This document shows, piece after piece, positions 5,466 to 58,424 of a DNA stretch of 64,000 nt. Origin of the DNA: Collimonas sp. (lineage in GTDB: Bacteria; Pseudomonadota; Gammaproteobacteria; Burkholderiales; Burkholderiaceae_D); assembly GCF_039923675.1 (NCBI RefSeq), contig NZ_JBDTCG010000015.1, positions 14,098 to 78,097 on the forward strand, given 5' to 3'. A model generated the notes under the pieces. That model saw nothing but the letters and a program-made list of their open reading frames with translations, was not told the DNA's origin and made no database searches. Made by a program: the position numbers and the translations under genes. Numbering within the stretch: the stretch's first letter is position 1; each line of letters begins with the position of its first letter.

Positions 5466-6032
5466 TTACAGAAGCAGATAGCTTTGCAATAACACCACCG
5501 CCGCGCTGCTGGCGCCGATGCCGCGTGCCGTAATCCGGAAAGCCGGCCGCGGCTGCGGAACGTCAAGATGAAATTGCAGATCCGTTTCAAACTCCAGGCG
5601 TTCAACCATACAGCGTGCGGGTGAGGCAGGCGTGACGCCTTCAGCGCCGATCCGCGGCACCGGCACGGATACCTGGTCATTGCGCCAGCTGTCGGCCATT
5701 TCCCAGTATTGCTTGCCGTCTGCGCCAACTCCCGCATGCGGTCCCTGTTTGAGCAACGGAATCGCAATCGGCGTCAGCTGCAGCTGGTTTTCGCAAAAGC
5801 GCAAGGCATGCTCGGCGGATTGGAACGCCAATTGCTGGCTGCCGGCGTTGGCCGCCATTTTTTCTTCAAACACTGCGGTGCGCAAAGAACTGATACCGAG
5901 AAAACCCATCACCAGCAGGCAGATCAGCAGCATCGGCAACACCACGCCGTGTTGCCAGAACCCTTGCGGAAATAGGTGAGCTGAGGCCGGGACGGTCGAC
6001 AAACGCAGCAACCGGCTTGTCGTTATCCTCAT
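5466..6032 (-). CDS. pilX: PilX-like minor pilin / pilus assembly protein
   Basis: N-terminal hydrophobic segment followed by RTAVFEEKMAANAGSQQLAFQSAEHAL, resembling the PilX_N domain. ATGA overlap with pilV (6029-6032). Sits directly upstream of pilY1. Confidence 0.65.
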   Translation of the reverse strand: MRITTSRLLRLSTVPASAHLFPQGFWQHGVVLPMLLICLLVMGFLGISSLRTAVFEEKMAANAGSQQLAFQSAEHALRFCENQLQLTPIAIPLLKQGPHAGVGADGKQYWEMADSWRNDQVSVPVPRIGAEGVTPASPARCMVERLEFETDLQFHLDVPQPRPAFRITARGIGASSAAVVLLQSYLLL

Positions 6033-6571
6033 GGGGAGAAAGCGATCGAGAAGCAGCGCACATCCTTATGGCTTGAGGGATCGGCCGCCCCGGGCTGGCA
6101 ATTTTCAGCGATCACGCTGGAGTCGCTGCCTCGAGTATGCATCTCGCGGAAGTACACGCGCGTCGTGAAACCGTCAACCACCGAACCGCTGATCTCGCCC
6201 CAGCCGCCACTGATCGCCTCGCTTAACCGGCTTCGCCATTCGTGGATATCCTTGGCCGCCAGTTCGCGCGCGGTGCAGTCGTCTGGATTAAAGCAAGTTG
6301 GCGGCATCTCGTCGAGCGCGGGATAGCTTTGTTGCGACAAGTTGTAGGCGCCGTCATGCGCGCCGCGGATATTGGCGCGTACGCGGTCGGCAAGATCTGC
6401 GCTGAACCGGCTGACCGTGGCGCGTACATGTGCCGCTTTCTGATAACGCAATGCGGCGGTCTGCACATCGATCAAGGCAAACAAGGCGAAAGCAACGATC
6501 ACAATCGCCACCAGCACCTCTATCATGCCTACCCCGGATTGCGCAGCAGTGTGATTGCCGGCCACGATCAT
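6029..6571 (-). CDS. pilV: type IV pilus modification protein PilV (minor pilin)
   Basis: QSGVGMIEVLVAIVIVAFALFAL prepilin-type N-terminal motif, about 180 aa, first gene of the cluster. Confidence 0.75.
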   Translation of the reverse strand: MIVAGNHTAAQSGVGMIEVLVAIVIVAFALFALIDVQTAALRYQKAAHVRATVSRFSADLADRVRANIRGAHDGAYNLSQQSYPALDEMPPTCFNPDDCTARELAAKDIHEWRSRLSEAISGGWGEISGSVVDGFTTRVYFREMHTRGSDSSVIAENCQPGAADPSSHKDVRCFSIAFSP

Positions 6572-6688: not shown

Positions 6689-6979
6689 TCAGGAAAATTT
6701 GTCCAGCAACGCCGCAATATCTTTTGCACTTTGCTGCGCATCTTCCGGTGTAGCGGCCGCCGCCGTGTGGGTCACGATGGCGCCAGTCAGCAATGTGATA
6801 AACGCGCGGTCGAGCGCCTTGCGTGCAGCCGCCAGCTGCTGCGCGACACCGTTGCAATCAGCCGGCCCGGCGGCGTTGGCAATCAGTTTCTGGACGCCGC
6901 GGATCTGGCCTTCCACCCGCGCCAGCCGGTGCAGCAAATCTTTTTTCTGCTCATCGGTGAGTGCCGTACCGTGGACCAT
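6689..6979 (-). CDS. CsoR/RcnR/FrmR-family (DUF156) metal/stress-sensing transcriptional repressor
   Basis: LLHRLARVEGQIRGVQKLI matches the family hallmark (RLxRIEGQxRG). Size is about 96 aa from MVHGT (ATG 6979). The track's 121-aa version starts at a TTG, and 7018 is an alternative ATG. Confidence 0.7.
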   Translation of the reverse strand: MVHGTALTDEQKKDLLHRLARVEGQIRGVQKLIANAAGPADCNGVAQQLAAARKALDRAFITLLTGAIVTHTAAAATPEDAQQSAKDIAALLDKFS

Positions 6980-7082
6980 TTTTGTGGGCGTATCGCTCAA
7001 AGCCAATCTCCTCATTGTTCCTGCGCCGCAAACATCATGCAGGCAGCTTACCAAGGCCAGCGCAAATTACAAGTTCGCTGAA

Positions 7083-8594: not shown

Positions 8595-9274
8595 TTTTCG
8601 GCGACGACTTCCAGCAGATAGCCGAGGCCGCGCAGGGTGGTGATGGCGACTGCCAGCGGCTCGTTGCGCACCAGTTTTTTCCGCAGGCGATGGATATAGA
8701 TTTCAATCGCATCGGGATTGGCGTCGTCGACGAGCGAAAACACTTCGTCGAACAATTTTTCCTTGGAGACCACGCGGCCGGCGCGGCTGATCAGCACTTC
8801 CAGCACGGCATGCTCACGCGGCGTCAACGCCAGTGCCGCGCCGCCGTAGCTGAACATGCGCGTGACCGTATCGAACTGCAGCGCGCCGCAGCTATACACC
8901 GGCGCTTCGCCGCCCTGGGCGCGGCGCAGCAAGGCCTTGACGCGCGCTTCCAGCTCGACCAGTTCGAAGGGCTTGGCCAGGTAATCGTCGGCGCCCAGGT
9001 TCAAGCCTTGCACCCGGTCTTGCAAGCCGCCGCGCGCTGTCAGGATCAACACCGGGGTCTTGCTGCCGCGCGCGCGCAAGCGCTTCAAGACTTCCAGGCC
9101 ATCCATTTTCGGCAAGCTCAGATCGAGGATAACCAAGGCATACTGCTGGGTGTGCAACAGGCTGTCGGCGTCGGCGCCGTTCATGGCGCATTCGACCGAC
9201 CAATGCGCATCTTGCAAGGCTTTGGTCAGCCAGCGCGATAGCTCGACATGGTCTTCGATCAGCAAAATCCGCAT
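8591..9274 (-). CDS. OmpR-family response regulator (TctD-like)
   Basis: MRILLIEDHVELSRWL receiver domain (DLSLPKMDG phospho-acceptor region) plus a winged-helix output (TLRGLGYLL). Start re-picked at ATG 9274. Confidence 0.85.
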   Translation of the reverse strand: MRILLIEDHVELSRWLTKALQDAHWSVECAMNGADADSLLHTQQYALVILDLSLPKMDGLEVLKRLRARGSKTPVLILTARGGLQDRVQGLNLGADDYLAKPFELVELEARVKALLRRAQGGEAPVYSCGALQFDTVTRMFSYGGAALALTPREHAVLEVLISRAGRVVSKEKLFDEVFSLVDDANPDAIEIYIHRLRKKLVRNEPLAVAITTLRGLGYLLEVVAEK

Positions 9275-33354: not shown

Positions 33355-36300
33355 ATGCCGCCGCTACAGCCCGCATCCCCGCCGTCCAGCACTATCCCAT
33401 CCTCGTTCGACACTGCCTTTAGCGCTTTCCACGCCGAAATGATGGCCGACGCCACGCCGCTGCGCGCCGCCATTACCGCCGCCTATCGCCGCGACGAGAC
33501 GCTGGCGGTGCAATGGTTGCTGTCGCAAGTGCAAACCAGCGCCAGTTCGTATGCCGCCAGCCAGACGCTGGCGCGCAAGCTGGTGCAGTCGGTGCGTGAA
33601 AAACGTACACGCGCATCAGGCGTGGACGCTTTGATGCATGAATTTTCCCTGTCGTCGGAAGAGGGCGTGGCCTTGATGTGCCTGGCGGAAGCCTTGTTGC
33701 GCATTCCGGATCATCAAACCGCGGACCGCCTGATCGCCGACAAGATCAGCAAGGGCGACTGGCGCAGCCACCTGGGTGAATCGCCATCGATGTTCGTGAA
33801 TGCGGCAACCTGGGGATTGCTGATTACCGGCAAGCTGGTCACCACCAATAGCGAGCGCGGCCTGGGCTCGGCGCTGACCAAGCTGATCGGCCGCGGCGGC
33901 GAACCATTGATCCGCAAGGGCGTCGATGTCGCCATGCGCATGCTGGGCAACCAGTTCGTCACCGGCCAGACCATCGCTGAAGCGCTGAGCAACAGCCGCG
34001 ATAATGAAAAGCGCGGCTATCGTTATTCCTACGACATGCTGGGCGAGGCGGCGCTGACCGAAGAAGATGCGGCAGCTTACTACCGCTCTTATGAAGATGC
34101 GATCCACGCCATCGGCAAAGCGTCGGACGGACGCGGCATCAAGCAAGGCCCGGGCATCTCGGTCAAGCTGTCGGCGCTGCATCCGCGTTATTCGCGCGCA
34201 CAACGCCAGCGCACCATGCAGGAACTGCTGCCGCGATTGAAGCAGTTGCTGCTGCTGGCCAAGCAATACAACATCGGTTTGAATATCGACGCCGAAGAAG
34301 CGGATCGCCTGGAACTGTCGCTGGACCTGATGGAAGCGCTGGCTTTCGACGCCGATCTGGCAGGTTTCGAGGGCATCGGTTTCGTGGTGCAGGGCTACCA
34401 GAAACGCTGTCCTTTTGCGATCGATTATCTGGTCGACCTGGCGCGCCGCAGCGGCCGCAAGTTCATGGTGCGGCTGGTCAAGGGCGCGTATTGGGATTCT
34501 GAAATCAAGCGCGCGCAGGTCGACGGTTTGCCAGGTTTCCCGGTATACACGCGCAAGGTGTACACCGATGTGTCCTACCTGACTTGCGCGCAGAAATTGC
34601 TGGCGTCCACCGATGTGATCTATCCGCAGTTTGCTACGCATAACGCGCACACACTGGCGACCATCTACAGCTGGGCCAAGGAAAAAAACATCACCGATTA
34701 CGAGTTCCAGTGCCTGCACGGCATGGGTGAAACCTTGTATGACCAAGTGGTCGGCAAAGACATGCTGGACAAGCCTTGCCGGATTTATGCGCCGGTCGGT
34801 TCGCACCAGACTTTGCTGGCCTACCTCGTGCGGCGTTTACTGGAAAACGGCGCCAATTCTTCCTTCGTCAACCAGATCGTCGATGAAAATGTCTCGATCG
34901 ATTCGCTGATTGCCGATCCTCTGCAAGCCGCACAGCAGCTGGGCGGCGAACCGCATCCGCAAATTTCCTTGCCGTCGGCGATGTATGGCGTGGAGCGTAA
35001 AAATTCGGCCGGGCTCGATCTTAGCAACGAAGATGTGCTGCACCAGATCGATACCGCTTTCAGCATGTTCGGCCAGCAGCAATGGCATGTCACGCCACTG
35101 TTGAGCGATCTGCAAACGTATGATCAAGCCGCGCGTCCGGTGCTGAATCCGGCCGATCATCGCGACGTGGTCGGCAGCGTGATCGAAGCCAGCGTTGGCG
35201 ATGTCGACAAAGCCTTGCATGCGGCCAGCGTCTACGCCATGGATTGGCAAACCCTGCCGCCGGCGGAACGCGCCGAAAAACTGGATCGCTCCGCCGTCCT
35301 GTTCGAAGAACATCAGATGGAATTGATTTCCCTGGCAATCCGCGAGGCCGGAAAATCGCTGCCTAACGCGATCGCCGAAGTGCGCGAAGCGGTCGATTTT
35401 TTACGCTACTATGCGGCGCAGATCCGCCACACGCAAAACGCGCTGGCGCTGGGTCCGGTGGTTTGTATCAGCCCGTGGAATTTCCCGCTGGCGATTTTCG
35501 TGGGCGAAGTCAGCGCCGCGCTGGCTGCAGGGAATGTGGTGCTGGCGAAACCAGCGGAACAAACCCCGCTGATCGCCGCACGCGCGGTGCAACTGATGCA
35601 TGAAGCCGGCGTGCCGCATGCGGCTTTACAATTTCTGCCGGGGCAGGGCGATACCGTCGGCGCCACGCTGACTGCTGATCCGCGCGTCAAGGGCGTGATC
35701 TTTACCGGCTCGACCGAGGTCGCGCAGATCATCAACCGCACGCTGGCGAAGCGCTCGCTGGAAGAGTCGGTGGACTTGCCGCTGATCGCGGAAACCGGTG
35801 GCCAGAATGCTTTGATCATGGACTCCAGCGCCTTGCCGGAACAGGTGGTGCAAGACGTGCTGAATTCCGCCTTCGACAGCGCCGGCCAGCGTTGCTCGGC
35901 GCTGCGCGTGCTGTGCCTGCAAAACGATATCGCCGACCGTACCTTGCATATGCTCAAGGGCGCGATGCAAGAACTGCGCATTGGTAATCCTGACCGCCTG
36001 GTGACAGACATCGGGCCGGTGATCGATGCCGAGGCACAGGGCCAGTTGCTGGCGCATATCGAAAAAATGCGCGGCACTGCCAAGGACTTCTTCCAGCTGC
36101 CGCTGCCGCCAGAACAAAGCAACGGTACTTTCGTGGCGCCGACGCTGATTGAAATCGGTTCGTTGGCGGAGCTGAAGCGCGAGGTCTTCGGCCCGGTATT
36201 GCACGTGCTGCGCTATGCCCGCAATGAATTGCCGCAACTGATCGAAGCGATCAACGGCAGCGGCTACGGCCTGACGCTGGGTATCCATTCGCGCATCGAT

Positions 36301-41549: not shown

Positions 41550-42851
41550 TCAATCCAGTCCGTCAAACGCCGCGTCGTCCGGCCCCACATGGTGCGGCGA
41601 GCGCCAGGTGACGTCACGCATCGAGTGCTGCACCTGGTTTTCCACTCCTAGCAAGGTTGCAAAAATCGCCATTCTTACCGGAATTCCGTTGTCGGTCTGG
41701 CGGAATATGGCCAGGCGCGGGTCGTGGTTGAGGTCTGTGCTGAGATCGTTGGCTCCCGGGCGGCCGTCGCGCGGTAGCGGATGCATGACGATGGTGTCGG
41801 CGCTGCAGGTGGCGTCGATCAGTGTCTGGTTGATCTGGAAGTCCGGTGTGTAGCCTTCGATTGCCTCGTCGGCAAAGCGTTCTTTCTGGATCCGGGTGGC
41901 GTAGACGATATCCGCGCCTTTCAAACCATGCGCCAACGAGGTCGAGGTTTCCACCACATGGCCGCCGCGGGCGATGCGCTCAAGGATATGTGCCGGCATC
42001 TCCAGGCCGGTCGGCGCAATCAGCGTGAACCGGAGACCGCGGTACAGCGCCAGCAGCTTGATCAGCGAATGCACCGTGCGGCCGTACTTGAGATCGCCGG
42101 CCATGACGATGTGAGCGCCGTCGACCAGCCTGCCCAACCGGGAAAACTCACGCTGGATGGTGTACAGGTCGAGAATTGCCTGGCTCGGATGCTCACCGGG
42201 CCCGTCGCCACCATTGATCACCGGGATATTGGTGGCGCGGGCGAATTCGTCGACCGCGCCTTGCTCCGGATGCCGCACTACCAACGCGTCGACATAGCCG
42301 CTGATGACGCGGCTGGTGTCGTAAATCGATTCTCCCTTGGTCATCGATGAGAACGTAAACCCGGTGGTATCGCACACCGAGCCACCCAGCCGGCAAAAAG
42401 CCGCGCCAAAGCTGATACGCGTGCGCGTGCTGGCTTCAAAGAACAAATTGGCTAGTACGGCACCCTCGAGGATGCGCGAGACCTTCTGGCGCCTTGCAAT
42501 GGGCTGCATGATGTCGGCGATGCGAAACAGCTCTTCCAGCGAATCACGTGAAAATTGATCCACCGAGAGTAGTTGTGGCTTGCCGTCGCGGCCGATGCGC
42601 GAGTGGAGAGGTGCATTGGGATCGGGCATATATACGCTCTGCGTATCGCCTGATCCAGCTACGCCGCCTTGCAGTATTTCATTGACAAATTTGGTCACAA
42701 TATCCGGCATGACCCTGAATTCACCTGATGTTTCAGGCAGCAGCCAGGTATCCAGCGCACGTTTTCTAATACCGATCCTGTCCGAGAAATTTTCCCGGGT
42801 CAGGTTCAGGCGACGCATGGCGTCGCGAAGAAATGTCTGCTGATCGATCAT
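41550..42851 (-). CDS. aspartate carbamoyltransferase catalytic-chain paralogue with ~110-aa N-terminal extension
   Basis: Complete ATCase motif set: FFEASTRTRISF (STRTR), TKGESIYDT, VVRHP, NGGDGPGEHPSQAILD, GDLKYGRTVHS, HPLPR, and the RMAIFATLLG region. Start at MIDQQ (ATG 42851) with AAGGAG 6 nt upstream. The N-terminal segment LTRENFSDRIGIRKRALDTWLLPE looks like an XRE-type HTH. Confidence 0.8.
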   Translation of the reverse strand: MIDQQTFLRDAMRRLNLTRENFSDRIGIRKRALDTWLLPETSGEFRVMPDIVTKFVNEILQGGVAGSGDTQSVYMPDPNAPLHSRIGRDGKPQLLSVDQFSRDSLEELFRIADIMQPIARRQKVSRILEGAVLANLFFEASTRTRISFGAAFCRLGGSVCDTTGFTFSSMTKGESIYDTSRVISGYVDALVVRHPEQGAVDEFARATNIPVINGGDGPGEHPSQAILDLYTIQREFSRLGRLVDGAHIVMAGDLKYGRTVHSLIKLLALYRGLRFTLIAPTGLEMPAHILERIARGGHVVETSTSLAHGLKGADIVYATRIQKERFADEAIEGYTPDFQINQTLIDATCSADTIVMHPLPRDGRPGANDLSTDLNHDPRLAIFRQTDNGIPVRMAIFATLLGVENQVQHSMRDVTWRSPHHVGPDDAAFDGLD

Positions 42852-43019
42852 TCGCTTCTCCTTTATATACGCTTTGCGTACATTAAAGGATCGCATTTCA
42901 CTTGCCTAGATTTTTCTCTTGCCGTTGCACTGCTCATTTTTTGTGCAGTTTACTAATTTCATGAACACTGAATTATTTATTGCTTTAAAAACATTATAAA
43001 TGTGCTGTTTTTGCCATTT

Positions 43020-43230
43020 TGTGGATAAGGCTGTGGACATCCTGTTTTCTCATTGTGGATATCGTACTTAGTTTTCCACCGGCGACTTTTTATCCAAGAA
43101 TTATTCTTATTCGATACACCGATTACCAAGCGTTTATCCAGGCAGTAAGTCATTGAATGAACGGTCAAATTTCTGGTTATCCACAGAAAAACAGGGTGTT
43201 AACTACTATTACTATTTATATATATAAATC
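43020..43230. repeat. copy A of a ~211-bp DnaA-box module
   Basis: Contains tgtggataa (43020-28, perfect, reverse), tgtggacat, tgtggatat, TTATCCAAG (43090-98), TTATCCAGG (43134-42) and TTATCCACA (43177-85, perfect). Ends in ctactattactatttatatatataaatc. The last 141 bp (43090-43230) align without gaps at roughly 80-85% identity, judged by eye, to 43478-43618. Confidence 0.85.
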
Positions 43231-43406
43231 TTTAACTACAAAACCGAAAAGCTTTTTCTGTTGAAGTTGCTTTAAAAAAAAGAATTTTAAAAATGAAGTT
43301 AAAAAAACAATTTTTTCAGAAAATTGTTTTTTTAAGAACGGGCTTTGGTAAATCAAGGAAAGAAATTGCAAAGAAAGTTGAGATTAAAGAGATGCAGAAA
43401 TACAAC

Positions 43407-43618
43407 TGTGGATAAGTCTTTGGATAACTATAGGAATCCAATGTGCATAAGCGAAGCAGTTATGCACAACCTTATTTTTATCCAAGAAATGTTCTTTCCA
43501 GATACAAGGTTTACTCAGCGCTTATCCAAGCTGTAAGTGATTGAATGAATAGTCAAATGTAGACTTATCCACAGAAAAGCAGGGCGTTAACTACTACTAC
43601 TATTTATATATATAAATC
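43407..43618. repeat. copy B of the ~211-bp DnaA-box module
   Basis: Contains tgtggataa (43407-15, perfect, reverse), tttggataa (43419-27), tgtgcataa/TTATGCACA inverted pair (43442-50 and 43460-68), TTATCCAAG (43478-86), TTATCCAAG (43522-30) and TTATCCACA (43565-73, perfect). Ends in ctactactactatttatatatataaatc. Confidence 0.85.
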
Positions 43619-43693
43619 AGTAAACGTAAACACGAAGAGCCCAGAAATCTGGAAACAGGGGGGGATTACCCCCTAAAACCAGCTTTCAGAAGA

Positions 43694-44581
43694 TCAGTTT
43701 TTCCAAATTGTTTCCAATATGGCGAATACAGCGGCAATCACCGGTTCTTCTTTACGTTTATCCAGTGTAATAAACGAAAGTTCTGTGGATAAATTGACCG
43801 TATCGGAAATGACCAAGCCATGCGCATGGGCTTCGCGTAATGCAATTGATTCTCTGACAAGAGAAAGCCCGACGCCGGATTTCACCAGATCGAGCATTGA
43901 TGGTTCCTGGTCAACCAAGGCAACTTTATTCGGCGTAACTTTATATTGTGCAAACGTTTTACTGAGTAAGCGATGATGCGCCGACTCCGGCGGGGTCCAG
44001 ATCCAGGGCAATTTTGCCAAAGCCGGCCAGTCTTTTCCGGAAATCCGACTTTTCCAACCCGATGGTGCAAGCACGCAGTAAGTAAACTGTGTCAGTGTGA
44101 GCCGGTGAAAATTCTTATTTGGCGTACCTAGGTAGTAGCCGACATCGAGGCGGCCGGACTTGATTTGCTGCAAAACATCTCCTGACATGCTGTGCTGCAA
44201 TTGTGTAGAAAGCTGTGGATAACTTTCCACCAGACGCTGGAGAAAAGCGCCAAGCCGGATAAATTCAGGGTCGAGAATGGTGCCGATGGCGAGTTTTCCA
44301 CTCAGTATTTTAGAGTTGCTTGGATGTAAGCTGGCGGCCTGTTGGCGCAGTTCAGACATGACCGCAATCGCACGTTCGGCAAAAGGCAGTAACTTGACGC
44401 CTTCATCGGTCAACGCCATGCCACTGGGGATGCGGGTGAACAATTGCAGGTTCAAACTAGTTTGCAGCGATTTGATTTGCAGGCTGACAGCCGGCTGGGT
44501 GACATGCAGCAATTCTGCTGCGCGCGTCAGATTTCCCTCACGGGCGACCGTGACGAAGGCGAGAAGTTGGATGAGGTCCAT
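43694..44581 (-). CDS. LysR-family transcriptional regulator (MmsR-like by context)
   Basis: MDLIQLLAFVTVAREGNLTRAAELLHVTQPAVSLQIKSLQ HTH. Divergent from mmsA. Confidence 0.9.
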   Translation of the reverse strand: MDLIQLLAFVTVAREGNLTRAAELLHVTQPAVSLQIKSLQTSLNLQLFTRIPSGMALTDEGVKLLPFAERAIAVMSELRQQAASLHPSNSKILSGKLAIGTILDPEFIRLGAFLQRLVESYPQLSTQLQHSMSGDVLQQIKSGRLDVGYYLGTPNKNFHRLTLTQFTYCVLAPSGWKSRISGKDWPALAKLPWIWTPPESAHHRLLSKTFAQYKVTPNKVALVDQEPSMLDLVKSGVGLSLVRESIALREAHAHGLVISDTVNLSTELSFITLDKRKEEPVIAAVFAILETIWKN

Positions 44582-44732
44582 GTGCTTAAATTTTAATCGT
44601 GACGGATTCGTTATTAGTATTTCTTATAATGCTGTTGATCATAACTCATTGGATTGTTGGCGTGGCTAACGATATTCTGGGCAAAAAATAATACAGATCA
44701 AATTCAACCCAGACCCAACCAAAGGAATCCTT

Positions 44733-46259
44733 ATGACCACATCATCAAGCTCCACCCCCCTGATTCAGCATTACATCAATGGCAAAGTGACGGAATCGGC
44801 CAGCGGCCGCCAACAAGATGTTTTCAATCCGGCGACTGGCGCGGTTTCCGCCAGAGTTGTGTTGGGCAGTGTTGAAGAAGTGAACGCAGCGGTAGCCGCA
44901 GCATCGGCGGCAGCGCCCGCTTGGGCTGATACGGCACCGCTGAAGCGTGCGCGGGTGATGTTCAAGTTCAAGGAGTTGATGGAGCAACATCACGATGCGT
45001 TGGCAGCGGCGATCACGCGTGAACATGGCAAGGTGTTTTCCGACGCTAAAGGAGAGGTTACACGCGGTATTGAAATCGTTGAATTTGCATGCGGCGCTCC
45101 GCAACTGTTGAAAAGTCAGTTTACCGACAATATCGGCGGCGGCATCGATAACTGGAACCTGCGTCAGCCTCTCGGCGTTACCGTCGGCATTACGCCTTTC
45201 AATTTTCCGGTGATGGTGCCGTTGTGGATGGCGCCGATGGCGATTGCGACTGGCAATACCTTTATCTTGAAACCATCGGAACGCGACCCCTCGGCATCGC
45301 TGATGATGGCTGATCTGTTTAAGCAGGCCGGTTTGCCGGATGGTGTATTCAATGTGGTGCAGGGCGACAAGCTGGCGGTGGATACTTTGTTGCAGCATCC
45401 GGATGTCAAGGCGGTGTCGTTTGTCGGTTCGACGCCGATTGCAGAATATATTTACCAGGAAGGCGCCAAGCGCAAAGGTGCGTATCCACTGAGAGTGCAA
45501 GCGTTGGGCGGCGCCAAGAATCACCTGGTGGTGATGCCGGATGCGGATCTGGATCAGGCTGTCGATGCCTTGATGGGCGCGGCCTATGGTTCAGCCGGCG
45601 AACGTTGCATGGCGATTTCGGTTGCTGTCGCGGTGGGTAATGTTGCAGACAAATTGATTGCGGCATTGATCCCTCGCGTGAAGGCTTTGAAGATCAAGAA
45701 CGGAATGGAAGCCGATGCGGAAATGGGGCCGGTGGTCACTGCCGTGCATAAGGAAAAAATCGAAGGCTATATCGAGGGCGGCGTTGCTGCCGGCGCCAAG
45801 TTGCTGGTCGATGGGCGTGGCTTGAAAGTGCCTGGTCTCGAACAAGGTTTCTTCCTCGGCGGATCGCTGTTCGATCAGGTCACGCCGGAAATGAAAATCT
45901 ATCAGGAAGAGATTTTCGGTCCGGTTCTGTGCATCGTGCGGGTGCCAGATTTTGCCTCCGCCGTGAACCTGATCAACGCCCATGAATTCGGTAATGGCGT
46001 TGCGCTGTTTACTTCGGATGGCAATACCGCGCGCGAGTTTTCACGGCGGGTGGAAGCTGGCATGGTGGGCGTCAATGTGCCGATTCCTGTGCCGATGGCA
46101 TGGCACTCGTTCGGTGGCTGGAAGCGCTCATTGTTTGGCGATGCGCATGCCTATGGCGAAGAAGGCGTGCGTTTTTATACGCGCTACAAATCGATTATGC
46201 AGCGCTGGCCGCAGACGATTTCCAAGGGCGCGGAGTTCACCATGCCGGTCGCTAAATAA
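44733..46259 (+). CDS. mmsA: CoA-acylating methylmalonate-semialdehyde dehydrogenase
   Basis: 508 aa with strong MmsA character (HYINGK..., [24 protein letters not shown], catalytic GERCMA). Confidence 0.9.
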
Positions 46260-46450
46260 ATAGTATAAACAATATAAATAATTATTATATTATTTGAAAA
46301 TACTATCCAAGAAAAGCAATAAATTCACGAACAAGAACTTAAGATCTTCTTTTGATTTTTGTTCGTGATTTTGTGCTTTTTGTGGAAAAAGTTTTTCTAC
46401 TTTTGAATAAAAATTAAAAGAACAAATCGAAAAAAAATAGAAAGAGGCGC

Positions 46451-48076
46451 ATGGAATCAGCAGGCAAGTACGACTACATCATCATCGGTGCAGGGACCGC
46501 GGGCTGCGTGCTGGCGAACCGTTTGACACAAGATAGTTCGGTCAAGGTGCTGCTGATAGAAGCAGGCGCAAAAGATGATTATATCTGGATCCATATTCCT
46601 GTCGGCTATCTGTATTGCATCAATAATCCTCGCACCGACTGGCTATATAAAACCGAGCCGGATGTCGGCCTGAATGGCCGCAGATTGCTATATCCGCGCG
46701 GTAAAGTATTGGGAGGAAGTTCCTCGATCAACGGCATGATTTACATGCGCGGCCAGGCGCGCGATTATGATCAATGGGCGCAACTCACGGGCGATCCGTC
46801 ATGGCGCTGGGAGGAGGTCCTACCGCTGTTTAAAAAGAGCGAAGACCACTATAAAGGCGCCAGCGAATTTCACGGCGCCGGCGGCGAATGGAGGGTGGAA
46901 AAGCAGCGGTTGTCATGGAAAATACTTGACGCATTCCGGGACGCCGCAGCGGAAACCGGTATCCCTAAAATCGATGATTTCAACTGTGGCGACAATGAAG
47001 GGTCCGGCTATTTCGACGTCAACCAAAAGCGCGGTATCCGCTGGAATGCGTCGAAGGCATTTTTACGTTCGGCGACGCGGCGCGGCAACCTGGATATCAT
47101 GACAGGCTGCCACGTCAAGCGCCTGGTGCTTGAACGTGGCGAGCAGGGGCTGGTCTGCAAAGGCGTTGAATTTTCAGGTGGTGGCAGGGAATGGAATGCC
47201 GAGGCCGGCCGCGAGACGTTGCTGAGTGCAGGCGCTGTGGGCTCACCGCATATTTTGCAGATGTCAGGCATTGGTCCGGCGGCTTTATTGCAGCTGCACC
47301 AGATCCCTGTGATGCAGGATACGCCGGGTGTCGGGGAGAACCTGCAAGACCATTTGCAGATCCGCATGGCTTTTACAGTCAGCGGCGTGAAAACCCTGAA
47401 TGGGATGAGTAACAGCTGGTTTGGCAAGGCGAAAATCGGCATGGAATATCTGTTGACGCAGAGCGGTCCGATGTCGATGGCGCCTTCGCAACTGGGGGCG
47501 TTTGCCAAGTCCGACCCGGCGCAAATCACGGCCAATCTGGAGTATCACGTGCAACCATTGTCGCTGGAGAAATTCGGTGATCCTTTGCATGCATTTCCCG
47601 CTTTTACCGCCAGCGTATGCAATTTGCGTCCTACTTCGCGTGGCCATGTGAGGATTGGTTCAGGCATTGCCGAGAATGCGCCTAAAATCACCTTGAATTA
47701 CCTGGCAACTGAGGAAGACCGCAAGGTCGCCGCTGCTTCGGTATTATTGACCCGTAAAATTGCCGCGGCGCCGGCATTGCGAAAGTACGCTCCCGAAGAA
47801 TTCAAACCTGGACTGCAATACCGTACCGAGGAGGATCTGATCAAGGCCGCCGGTGAAGTGGGCACCACTATATTCCACCCGGTGGGGACCTGCAAGATGG
47901 GACGTGCCGACGATGCGATGGCGGTGGTCGACAGCAAGCTGCGGGTCAAGGGAGTGGGGGGCTTGCGCGTGGTTGACGCTTCGGTGATGCCGACCATCAC
48001 CTCCGGCAACACCAATTCACCGACCTTGATGATTGCGGAAATGGCGGCAAAATTCATCAGGGAAGAGCGTTACTGA
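46451..48076 (+). CDS. GMC-family FAD oxidoreductase (choline dehydrogenase-like alcohol dehydrogenase)
   Basis: [33 protein letters not shown], and the C-terminal HPVGTCKMG...VVDASVMP motifs. Confidence 0.9.
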
Positions 48077-54230: not shown

Positions 54231-54275
54231 AAAACGGCGATTGTTCCACGTGAAACAATCGCCGTTTTGCTTTTT
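54231..54275 (+). terminator. strong hairpin plus T-run downstream of the TauE gene; the loop/stem top is a parS site
   Basis: aaaacggcgattgtt-ccacgtga-aacaatcgccgtttt followed by gcttttt. Confidence 0.6.
54242..54257. promoter_or_regulatory. parS: parS centromere site 1 (TGTTCCACGTGAAACA)
   Basis: Exact match to the canonical chromosomal ParB/Spo0J binding site TGTTCCACGTGAAACA. Lies 0.4 kb upstream of mnmG-rsmG-parA-parB. Confidence 0.85.
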
Positions 54276-54303
54276 CTGTTCGCAAACAAAGCTAAATGCC
54301 TAA

Positions 54304-54319
54304 TGTTCCACGTGAAACA
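54304..54319. promoter_or_regulatory. parS: parS centromere site 2 (TGTTCCACGTGAAACA)
   Basis: Second exact 16-mer, 62 bp from the first (start to start). Confidence 0.85.
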
Positions 54320-58358: not shown

Positions 58359-58424
58359 TTATCCATGGGTTTAACCACAGCTTATTCCCGTTTTATTCAT
58401 GGGTTGCCCACAGAGTTATCCACA
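58359..58424 (+). promoter_or_regulatory. array of six co-oriented DnaA-box-like 9-mers in the parA-parB spacer
   Basis: TTATCCATG (58359), TTAACCACA (58371), TTATTCCCG (58383), TTATTCATG (58393), TTGCCCACA (58404), TTATCCACA (58416, perfect). Start-to-start spacing 12, 12, 10, 11, 12 bp. Confidence 0.5.

Follow-up and report, generated by a model that had tools for sequence, protein, structure and literature searches.

The stretch of DNA analyzed here (the window, 64 kb) comes from a Collimonas species (Oxalobacteraceae) and contains an AT-rich intergenic gap of 842 bp at positions 42852-43693. The left border of this gap is given by the left gene, which starts at the ATG at 42851, has an AGGAGA ribosome-binding site and is 433 aa long in public gene calls. 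On the right the gap is followed by a lysR gene (43694-44581, - strand). The gap is 66% AT, contains no credible ORF, and kb 43-44 has the lowest GC content of the window (0.377). An Rfam scan of 42-47 kb did not reveal any RNA family, and a promoter and terminator scan of the gap yielded nothing that exceeded the shuffled controls. Further to the right, two parS sites (TGTTCCACGTGAAACA) are located at 54242 and 54304 (54242..54319, +) upstream of mnmG, followed by mnmG-rsmG-parA-parB-atp; the parS sites and mnmG-rsmG-parAB are found 10.6-15 kb from the gap. None of the ORFs in the window hits DnaA Pfam families.

The original prediction described a dense cluster of perfect DnaA boxes organized as a duplicated module, and this observation was confirmed. 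The window holds nine perfect TTATCCACA boxes, while 0.29 are expected, and none of 100 shuffles reached nine. Six of them are located at 43020(-), 43177(+), 43407(-), 43565(+), 43784(-) and 44214-44222(-); the last one had originally been placed at 44213-21, one base off. When up to one mismatch is allowed, 10 of the 22 boxes of the window fall into kb 43-44, and this is the only DnaA box cluster of the window. All weaker boxes listed originally are present as well: TTATCCAAG three times (43090, 43478, 43522), TTATCCAGG at 43134, TTATCCAAA at 43419(-), ATATCCACA at 43054(-) and the TTATGCACA pair at 43442(-)/43460(+). Two of the perfect boxes had been assigned to the 3' half of lysR, but only the box at 43784-43792 lies in the 3' part of the gene (codon ~264 of 295), whereas the box at 44214-44222 is at codon ~120. 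The former is not perfect in the relatives; the latter is perfect at the orthologous place in 6 of 10 full-length related loci.

The candidate origin region (42900-43693, the gap without the promoter/operator of the left gene) contains two paralogous modules of ~213 bp in the same orientation, module A (43020-43232, +) and module B (43407-43620, +). They are 75% identical over 202 nt without gaps at an offset of 388, or 82% identical (mean column identity) when gaps are allowed, and GTTAACTACTAYTACTATTTATATATATAAATC occurs exactly twice, with 0 expected. The modules are separated by a spacer (43233-43406) that is 74% AT and contains a perfect 16-nt A/T inverted repeat (43299-43314/43320-43335). 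The AldDH-GMC intergenic region (46253-46440) was considered as a degenerate third module, but only scattered weak boxes were found there and it was rejected.

Each module reads like a complete minimal oriC. Two perfect boxes in inverted orientation, 157 bp apart, bracket an array of weaker boxes. In module A these are the distal, R4-like box at 43020-43028(-) and the DUE-proximal, R1-type box TTATCCACAG at 43177-43185(+), which is invariant in 11 species. The inner boxes (43032-43142) are ATGTCCACA at 43032(-), ATATCCACA at 43054(-), TTTTCCACC at 43072(+), TTATCCAAG at 43090(+) and TTATCCAGG at 43134(+). The start-to-start spacing of the forward boxes is 18, 44 and 43 bp and is identical in module B, where the distal box is located at 43407-43415(-), the inner boxes (43419-43530) are TTATCCAAA at 43419(-), TTATGCACA at 43442(-) and 43460(+) and TTATCCAAG at 43478(+) and 43522(+), and the R1-type box TTATCCACAG is located at 43565-43573(+). 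Each module has three reverse boxes followed by four forward boxes, and not two plus three as originally proposed. Between the R1-type box and the next box an IHF-like site is present, TAAGTCATTGAAT in module A (43146-43158, +), which has one mismatch to YAANNNNTTGATW, and TAAGTGATTGAAT at the same position in module B (43534-43546, +). Position and sequence of the module A site are conserved in the alignment, but no exact IHF consensus was found in the gap.

The R1-type box is followed by a 17-bp spacer containing GTTAAC, by four DnaA-trios (CTACTAYTACTA = 3'-GATGATRATGAT-5') and by an AT-rich tract. In module A the spacer is located at 43186-43202, with GTTAAC at 43198-43203 overlapping the first trio by one base; the trios CTACTATTACTA (3'-GATGATAATGAT-5' on the other strand) follow at 43203-43214 and the core of the AT-rich DNA-unwinding element (DUE), TTTATATATATAAATCTT, at 43215-43232. 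In module B (43574-43620, +) GTTAAC is located at 43586-43591, the trios CTACTACTACTA at 43591-43602 and the DUE TTTATATATATAAATCAG at 43603-43620. The pattern CTAYTAYTAYTA occurs only twice in the window, once per module, with 0 expected, and matches the trio consensus 3'-GAT-5' (PMC8287927). Nearest-neighbour energies, used as a surrogate for SIDD under superhelical stress, rank 43199-43238 and 43586-43625 as the 2nd and 4th least stable 40-mers of the 64 kb. GTTAAC is a GTWWAC motif; every module in every genus examined has a GTWWAC at this position, and the motif is 20-fold enriched in the gap. GTWWAC between boxes and CACAG at box ends, which is also enriched here, are the methylated motifs of Burkholderia cenocepacia origins (PMC7364216).

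To determine whether the modules are conserved, we compared the locus with 10 relatives. Identity across the 11 species is 0.83 for the array and 0.95 for trios plus DUE in module A, and 0.84 and 0.95, respectively, in module B, against 0.59-0.65 for spacer and flanks (0.65 for the inter-module spacer). Both modules are under equal purifying selection. Module-specific differences are conserved too, showing that the duplication is old and not homogenised. The same slot, between putA/asmA and GMC-LIV-ABC-TauE-mnmG, holds two or three such modules in Paraherbaspirillum, Glaciimonas, Herbaspirillum, Noviherbaspirillum, Undibacterium, Herminiimonas and an unnamed lineage. The layout was found in every related genus that could be examined, and the locus sits in a conserved slot next to the parS/mnmG block in at least eight genera. 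The modules are tandem or back-to-back, sometimes with genes between them, and the distance of 157 bp between the end boxes is kept in all modules of all genera.

Compared with the minimal oriC of Escherichia coli, each module likewise has inverted consensus boxes at the ends of an array of weaker boxes, an IHF-like site next to the DUE-proximal box and an AT-rich DUE on one side, and the locus lies on the mnmG side of the chromosome, away from dnaA. It differs in that two copies are present in tandem (two or three in relatives), about 11 kb of genes separate it from mnmG, clear GAT-type trios are found rather than 13-mers, and no GATC/SeqA system is apparent, GATC being depleted in the gap, while GTWWAC and CACAG motifs occur instead. 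Order and strand of box, spacer, trios and AT-rich tract match the basal unwinding system (BUS) of Bacillus subtilis, Helicobacter pylori and others (PMC8287927, PMC6669920). Here, however, the spacer is 17 bp, against a most common 13 bp and a limit of 16 bp in the published BUS finder, a single proximal box is present rather than a tandem pair, and the system occurs two or three times per chromosome. In the bipartite origins of B. subtilis (incA/B-incC) and H. pylori (oriC1-oriC2) there are also two DnaA box clusters, and in some of the genera studied here a gene lies between the clusters as well; but in bipartite origins only one sub-region carries the DUE and the clusters are not copies of each other, whereas here every unit has its own trios and DUE. 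In Pseudomonas aeruginosa (oriC1/oriC2) and, as predicted, in Halomonadaceae, more than one complete origin-like unit lies in the origin domain near mnmG-rsmG-parAB (Weigel 2025, bioRxiv 10.1101/2025.08.05.668638; PMC13438810). The Pseudomonas units are about 5 kb apart in different intergenic regions, while the units described here are clear paralogues, mostly adjacent (0.37-0.74 kb period; 0.39 kb in this Collimonas) and number up to three; only Noviherbaspirillum (2.7 kb apart, back-to-back) approaches the Pseudomonas layout. Origins far from dnaA have been inferred from GC skew, Ori-Finder or DoriC in Cupriavidus metallidurans, B. cenocepacia and Bordetella (PMC2864759, PMC4948915, PMC7364216). 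The chromosome-1 origins of B. cenocepacia and C. metallidurans are near parABS/gidA; C. metallidurans has a ~213-nt region with three perfect boxes at the skew switch, and B. cenocepacia has two box clusters and an "uncertain" exact origin. No repeated complete-unit structure has been described for them, and no description of tandem complete origin units was found in the literature searched for Collimonas, Oxalobacteraceae, Herbaspirillum or Burkholderiales.

Four of the five criteria of Weigel (2025) for a DnaA-dependent origin are fulfilled. A DUE is present, the perfect boxes at 43177-85 and 43565-73 lie about two helical turns from it (17 bp from the trios and 29 bp from the AT run) in the required orientation, which is the mandatory criterion, each module has seven boxes with zero to two mismatches at identical spacing, and the optional trios are found between box and DUE. 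The exception is that the gene on the DUE side should be transcribed away from the DUE, while lysR is transcribed toward the DUE of module B. The rule is also broken in Herbaspirillum chlorophenolicum, but it holds in Noviherbaspirillum, Undibacterium, "Herbaspirillum" HC18 and the 3-unit lineage.

Strand composition supports an origin at this site only in part. The cumulative G-C minimum within the window is at 33,490 (9.4 kb from the gap) and the keto minimum at 34,273, and skew is +0.07 from the gap rightwards. The left arm, however, shows no reversed skew, with a third-position estimate of +0.014 +/- 0.021 against +0.097 on the right. Third-position skew was also analyzed around the modules in five other genera: in Glaciimonas it changes sign exactly across the modules, from -0.07 +/- 0.04 to +0.13 +/- 0.02, while the other four showed no significant step within +/-10 kb. 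KOPS-like GGGNAGGG motifs are on the + strand on both sides of the gap, although they are few and confounded by gene strand.

Taken together, these data suggest that the gap is most likely the DnaA-dependent chromosomal replication origin (oriC) of this Collimonas genome, built from two head-to-tail copies of a complete minimal origin unit. We consider this well supported, although it rests on sequence evidence and not on the firing of the origin or the skew of the whole replicon. From the sequence we infer that DnaA binds the R1-type and R4-type consensus boxes at the ends of the ~165-bp array and that DnaA-ATP fills the weaker boxes between them, helped by a bend at the IHF-like site. The oligomer anchored on the R1-type box would then extend across the 17-bp spacer onto the four DnaA-trios and open the adjacent TTTATATATATAAAT tract, so that the helicase can be loaded. 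Since both units have kept every element at the same level of conservation since before Collimonas and Paraherbaspirillum split, and relatives keep two or three units, we think that each unit can assemble DnaA and open. The array would then act as one compound origin: whichever unit fires, its neighbours 0.4 kb away are replicated passively.

It is possible, though we hold this only tentatively, that just one unit initiates and that the other, with the two boxes inside lysR, is a cis-acting DnaA-binding regulator, acting as a local sink that times initiation, as a loading platform that feeds DnaA to the active unit as in bipartite origins, or as a spare. The DUE of module A is flanked by DnaA arrays on both sides, its own R1 box 17 bp to the left and the R4-type box of module B about 175 bp to the right, and module A is followed by the long 74% AT spacer, whereas module B is followed by GC-richer DNA. 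In addition, some R1 boxes carry a mismatch in relatives, TTACCCACA in module A of a Collimonas locus from the 90%-identity cluster that carries a C. fungivorans name and TTATGCACA in Glaciimonas unit 3, and the second origin of P. aeruginosa mainly regulates transcription (PMC13438810). On the other hand, a pure binding or titration role does not need trios or a DUE, yet these are the best-conserved parts of both modules and are present in all three units of the 3-unit lineages. Moreover, each of the two units in Noviherbaspirillum has its DUE facing a gene transcribed away from it, as expected for independent origins.

The original prediction also offered a datA/DARS-like regulatory site as an alternative to an oriC separated from dnaA. 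That the locus is not the active origin, but a site of this kind, a relic or auxiliary origin like P. aeruginosa oriCII, or a DnaA-controlled promoter region, with the real oriC elsewhere, for example next to dnaA, appears unlikely, although it is not excluded experimentally. dnaA is absent from the window and its upstream region in Collimonas was not seen, the left-arm skew and the KOPS-like motifs show no clean strand switch at the gap, and in P. aeruginosa an origin-like box cluster near mnmG (gidA) can be dispensable for chromosome replication (PMC13438810). DoriC-derived tables place the Herbaspirillum seropedicae and Herminiimonas arsenicoxydans origins beside dnaA, but these are predictions biased toward dnaA, and their BUS matches there are weak. 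The 20-mer reported for the DoriC entry of C. fungivorans Ter331 was absent from the window and from Collimonas loci even with 4-5 mismatches, which neither confirms nor denies a link between that entry and this locus. In H. chlorophenolicum dnaA lies 6 kb away from the complete modules, and its own upstream region has one perfect and one near box and no properly spaced trio/DUE system. The gap also contains the promoter and operator of the left gene, but the operator is a separate palindrome (42868-42880) that travels with that gene into genera where there are no DnaA boxes at all. The datA, DARS1 and DARS2 sites of E. coli are likewise clusters of DnaA boxes with an IHF-like site outside dnaA, but they have no DUE and no trios and are not located at the skew switch or the parS domain, and such a role does not explain the trios and DUEs conserved in each unit.

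The published BUS-finder table reports only weak or different box-trio matches for Oxalobacteraceae, possibly because the 17-bp spacer exceeds its 16-bp limit, and predictions for the group may therefore need revisiting. A more far-reaching and still speculative possibility is that Oxalobacteraceae chromosomes start replication from an array of two or three independently competent origin units rather than from one replicator, the units being kept as separate paralogues over family-level divergence, whether tandem, back-to-back or split by genes. Unit number, orientation and the conserved GTWWAC (methylation-type) motif between anchor box and trios would then form part of initiation control, for example origin choice or a built-in cis timer.

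The working rule for bacteria is one replicator per chromosome, and a 2025 survey still names P. aeruginosa as the only experimentally confirmed exception. Here, a whole bacterial family appears to keep two or three complete copies of the origin unit, each with its own DnaA anchor box, trios and unwinding tract, and each under selection since before the genera split. This gives a natural system to study what the minimal functional origin is, whether neighbouring origins compete or cooperate for DnaA, how once-per-cycle firing is enforced without GATC/SeqA, and how origins get rearranged, since inversions and genes landing between units are visible among the genera examined.

To test whether the box cluster of the original prediction is real, we compared box counts in the window with chance expectation. 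TTATCCACA occurs 9 times in the window against 0.29 expected, and none of 100 shuffles reached 9. Six copies lie between 43020 and 44222, as predicted, except that the last one is located at 44214-44222, one base off the coordinates originally given. With one mismatch allowed, 10 of the window's 22 boxes fall in kb 43-44, and no other kb has more than two. Two of the perfect boxes lie in the coding sequence of lysR: the box at 44214-44222 is perfect at the orthologous position in 6 of 10 relatives, including Paraherbaspirillum, while the box at 43784-43792 is specific to this genome. The two direct copies described in the original prediction are likewise real, with 202 nt at 75% identity without gaps, or 82% with gaps, at an offset of 388. 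No Rfam family matches the region.

The gap is bounded on the left by an aspartate/ornithine-carbamoyltransferase-like gene (41550-42851, - strand), whose true start is the ATG at 42851, which sits behind an AGGAGA ribosome-binding site; public gene calls give 433 aa. On the right it is bounded by the 3' end of a lysR-family gene (43694-44581, - strand). The palindrome TACGC-N3-GCGTA occurs twice in the window (0.03 expected), once just upstream of the carbamoyltransferase-like gene (42868-42880) and once inside its 5' coding part (42633-42645). The same two positions (about -20 to -75 and +204 to +219 relative to the gene start) are conserved in nearly all 80 homologous loci, from Collimonas to Pandoraea, Paraburkholderia and Caballeronia. 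The protein has a ~108-aa N-terminal extension without Pfam hit that looks helix-turn-helix-like. This is probably an autoregulatory operator, unrelated to the origin. The genes lysR, aldDH and the GMC oxidoreductase gene (43694-48076) have a lower third-position GC (below 0.55 to 0.64) than the rest of the window (about 0.75), and the aldDH-GMC intergenic region (46253-46440) contains the least stable 40-mer of the window plus scattered weak boxes; this could be a compositionally distinct insert or a decayed origin remnant.

Both copies, termed modules A and B, contain the same elements when read on the + strand. A distal perfect box in reverse orientation (43020 in module A, 43407 in module B) is followed by two weaker reverse boxes (43032 and 43054; 43419 and 43442) and three weaker forward boxes (43072, 43090 and 43134; 43460, 43478 and 43522), with starts 18, 44 and 43 bp apart in both modules, the last step reaching the proximal box. 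An IHF-like site with one mismatch (43146; 43534) precedes the proximal perfect box TTATCCACAG in forward orientation (43177; 43565). Next comes a 17-bp spacer (43186-43202; 43574-43590) with a GTTAAC (43198-43203; 43586-43591) that overlaps the first trio by 1 base. The trios are CTACTATTACTA in module A (43203-43214) and CTACTACTACTA in module B (43591-43602), and each module ends with an AT-rich tract beginning TTTATATATATAAAT (43215-43232; 43603-43620). The two perfect boxes are 157 bp apart in every unit of every genome examined. On the other strand the trios read 3'-GATGATRATGAT-5', that is, four consensus DnaA-trios in the same order and strand as in the basal unwinding system of Bacillus, Helicobacter and others (PMC8287927), and the trio pattern occurs nowhere else in the 64 kb. 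The module tails are the 2nd and 4th least stable 40-mers of the whole window. Each copy is therefore more than boxes plus an AT tail and reads like a complete minimal origin, with an assembly region bounded by inverted high-affinity boxes, as with R1 and R4 of E. coli, plus an unwinding system. In the inter-module spacer lies a perfect 16-nt A/T-only inverted repeat (TTAAAAAAACAATTTT at 43299-43314 and AAAATTGTTTTTTTAA at 43320-43335, 5 nt apart), which is partly conserved in Collimonas species and could be a protein site or a cruciform-prone element next to the DUE of module A.

To determine whether this layout is conserved, related loci were compared. The left-flank protein is 89-94% identical to Collimonas species (Oxalobacteraceae, Burkholderiales). 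Nine full-length Collimonas loci (a tenth is a 4.5-kb fragment cut inside the candidate origin) and Paraherbaspirillum soli carry the same two modules at the same place, whereas Pandoraea, Paraburkholderia and other homologues of the flanking gene have no boxes. In an alignment of 11 species, pairwise identity is 0.83-0.84 for the two box arrays, 0.84-0.88 for the spacers and 0.95 for trios plus DUE in both modules, compared to 0.65 for the inter-module spacer and 0.59-0.63 for the flanks. Differences between modules A and B are themselves conserved across species, and on a tree the A copies group with A and the B copies with B. The duplication therefore predates the Collimonas/Paraherbaspirillum split, is not being homogenised, and both copies are under equal constraint.

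To investigate the wider distribution, we scanned metagenome contigs with the anchor-box/GTTAAC pattern and followed the neighbouring GMC oxidoreductase into named genomes. The same unit appears in the same syntenic slot, between putA/asmA on one side and GMC - LIV-type ABC transporter - TauE - mnmG on the other. Two tandem units are present in Collimonas and Paraherbaspirillum (period 371-393 bp), in 'Herbaspirillum' sp. HC18, in a Herminiimonas MAG and in Undibacterium arcticum. Herbaspirillum chlorophenolicum has two units in the same orientation with a 100-aa ferredoxin gene between them (6120-6330 and 6856-7070 of the related locus L105). In Noviherbaspirillum autotrophicum and N. saxi the two units are back-to-back with the DUEs facing outward, separated by lysR-aldDH (2.7-2.9 kb; 5866-6084 and 8629-8840 of the Noviherbaspirillum locus L100, 7003-7161 and 9710-9867 of L106). 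Three tandem units were found in Glaciimonas sp. PAMC28666, in a 1.84-kb gap, and in an unnamed lineage (GMC about 72% identical), where each of the three is individually conserved (0.88-0.94) with 0.57-0.63 identity between them. Unit orientation relative to the putA and GMC flanks is inverted between lineages, showing that the origin region has been rearranged repeatedly without loss of units. Every unit keeps the anchor box, a GTWWAC, the trios and an AT-rich tract, and no lineage with a single unit was found in this set.

The GTWWAC motif is about 20-fold enriched in the gap (6 of the window's 23 copies, at 42948, 43198, 43509, 43586, 43620 and 43626), and one copy always sits between the anchor DnaA box and the trios, in every unit of every genus. 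Most boxes end in CACAG, which is 3.7-fold enriched in the gap, while GATC is depleted. CACAG at box ends and GTWWAC between boxes are the methylated motifs reported at B. cenocepacia origins, which suggests a GATC/SeqA-independent methylation mark at the unwinding site.

Several lines of evidence favor an origin. The locus fulfils four of the five structural criteria used for manual oriC prediction, including the mandatory one. Two parS sites lie 10.6 kb to the right and the mnmG-rsmG-parAB-atp block begins about 11 kb to the right, all transcribed away from the gap. As a separate observation, in the parA-parB intergenic region a near-consensus DnaA box (TTAACCACA, 58371-58379) and a perfect one (58416-58424) sit 45 bp apart, recalling DnaA control of gidAB-parAB in P. 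aeruginosa (PMC13438810). GC-skew support is only partial. The window-local minimum of cumulative G-C is at 33,490 and that of keto excess at 34,273, both within the 0-20 kb usually seen, and skew is about +0.07 from the gap rightwards. However, the left 43 kb of the window does not show reversed skew (+0.014 +/- 0.021). In Glaciimonas, genes of the same strand on the two sides differ sharply, and the fitted third-position replication skew changes sign across the modules, from -0.07 to +0.13; four other genera show no significant step within +/-10 kb. The KOPS-like octamer GGGNAGGG (236, 4803, 35641 and 54426) is found on the + strand only, on both sides of the modules, in the window and in most related loci. 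This is not the polarity switch expected at an origin and remains unexplained, although the motifs are few and mostly on coding strands. In addition, lysR reads toward the DUE of module B, contrary to the empirical rule that the gene next to the DUE points away from it, as is also the case in Herbaspirillum.

In Herbaspirillum chlorophenolicum dnaA lies only 6 kb from the units, and its own upstream region has one perfect and one near box but no properly spaced trio/DUE system. Origins far from dnaA and near parABS/gidA have been inferred from GC skew, Ori-Finder or DoriC in three other Burkholderiales. C. metallidurans has its skew switch 90 kb from dnaA, next to a 213-nt stretch with three perfect boxes; B. 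cenocepacia has gidA at BCAL0024 and dnaA at BCAL0423, with two box clusters and an 'uncertain' exact origin; and Bordetella follows the same pattern. The published, DoriC-derived BUS predictions for C. fungivorans Ter331, H. seropedicae, Janthinobacterium sp. Marseille and H. arsenicoxydans (supplementary table of PMC8287927) are weak matches (two-mismatch boxes, 3 trios) that do not resemble the strong box / 17-bp spacer / GAT-trio systems found here; the 16-bp spacer limit of the program may have made it miss them.

The original prediction left open whether the locus is oriC or a datA/DARS-like site. A datA/DARS or promoter role does not explain why trios and DUE are the best-conserved parts of every unit, and the operator of the left gene is a separate palindrome that follows that gene into genera without any boxes. 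P. aeruginosa oriCII is nevertheless a warning, since this origin-like cluster near gidA replicates plasmids but is dispensable in the chromosome and acts on transcription. Taken together, and although the dnaA region of Collimonas itself was not seen and the DoriC entry for Ter331 (~5.095 Mb) could not be confirmed to be this gap, we consider it likely that the locus is oriC. In the mechanism inferred from the order, spacing, stability and conservation of the elements, DnaA would occupy the two consensus boxes of a unit and DnaA-ATP would fill the weaker boxes, helped by an IHF-type bend. The oligomer anchored at the proximal box would then extend over the 17-bp spacer onto the GAT trios of one strand, opening the TTTATATATATAAAT tract for helicase loading.

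One unit resembles an E. coli-type minimal oriC combined with a Bacillus-type basal unwinding system. The array is not a bipartite origin, because each part has its own DUE and the parts are paralogues. Its layout is also unlike that of the Pseudomonas dual origins, which lie 5 kb apart, and only Noviherbaspirillum comes close to that layout. A description of repeated complete origin units was not found in the literature that could be searched; the authors of Ori-Finder note only that multiple predicted oriCs can occur. The origin identity itself is ordinary, and it is the apparently family-wide multi-unit architecture that is of interest. With respect to the presence of two or three units, the data show only that all are kept intact. 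The main alternative is one firing unit plus cis-regulatory DnaA platforms, while our preferred reading is a compound origin in which any unit can open and the others are then copied passively, so that extra units would cost nothing and add robustness.
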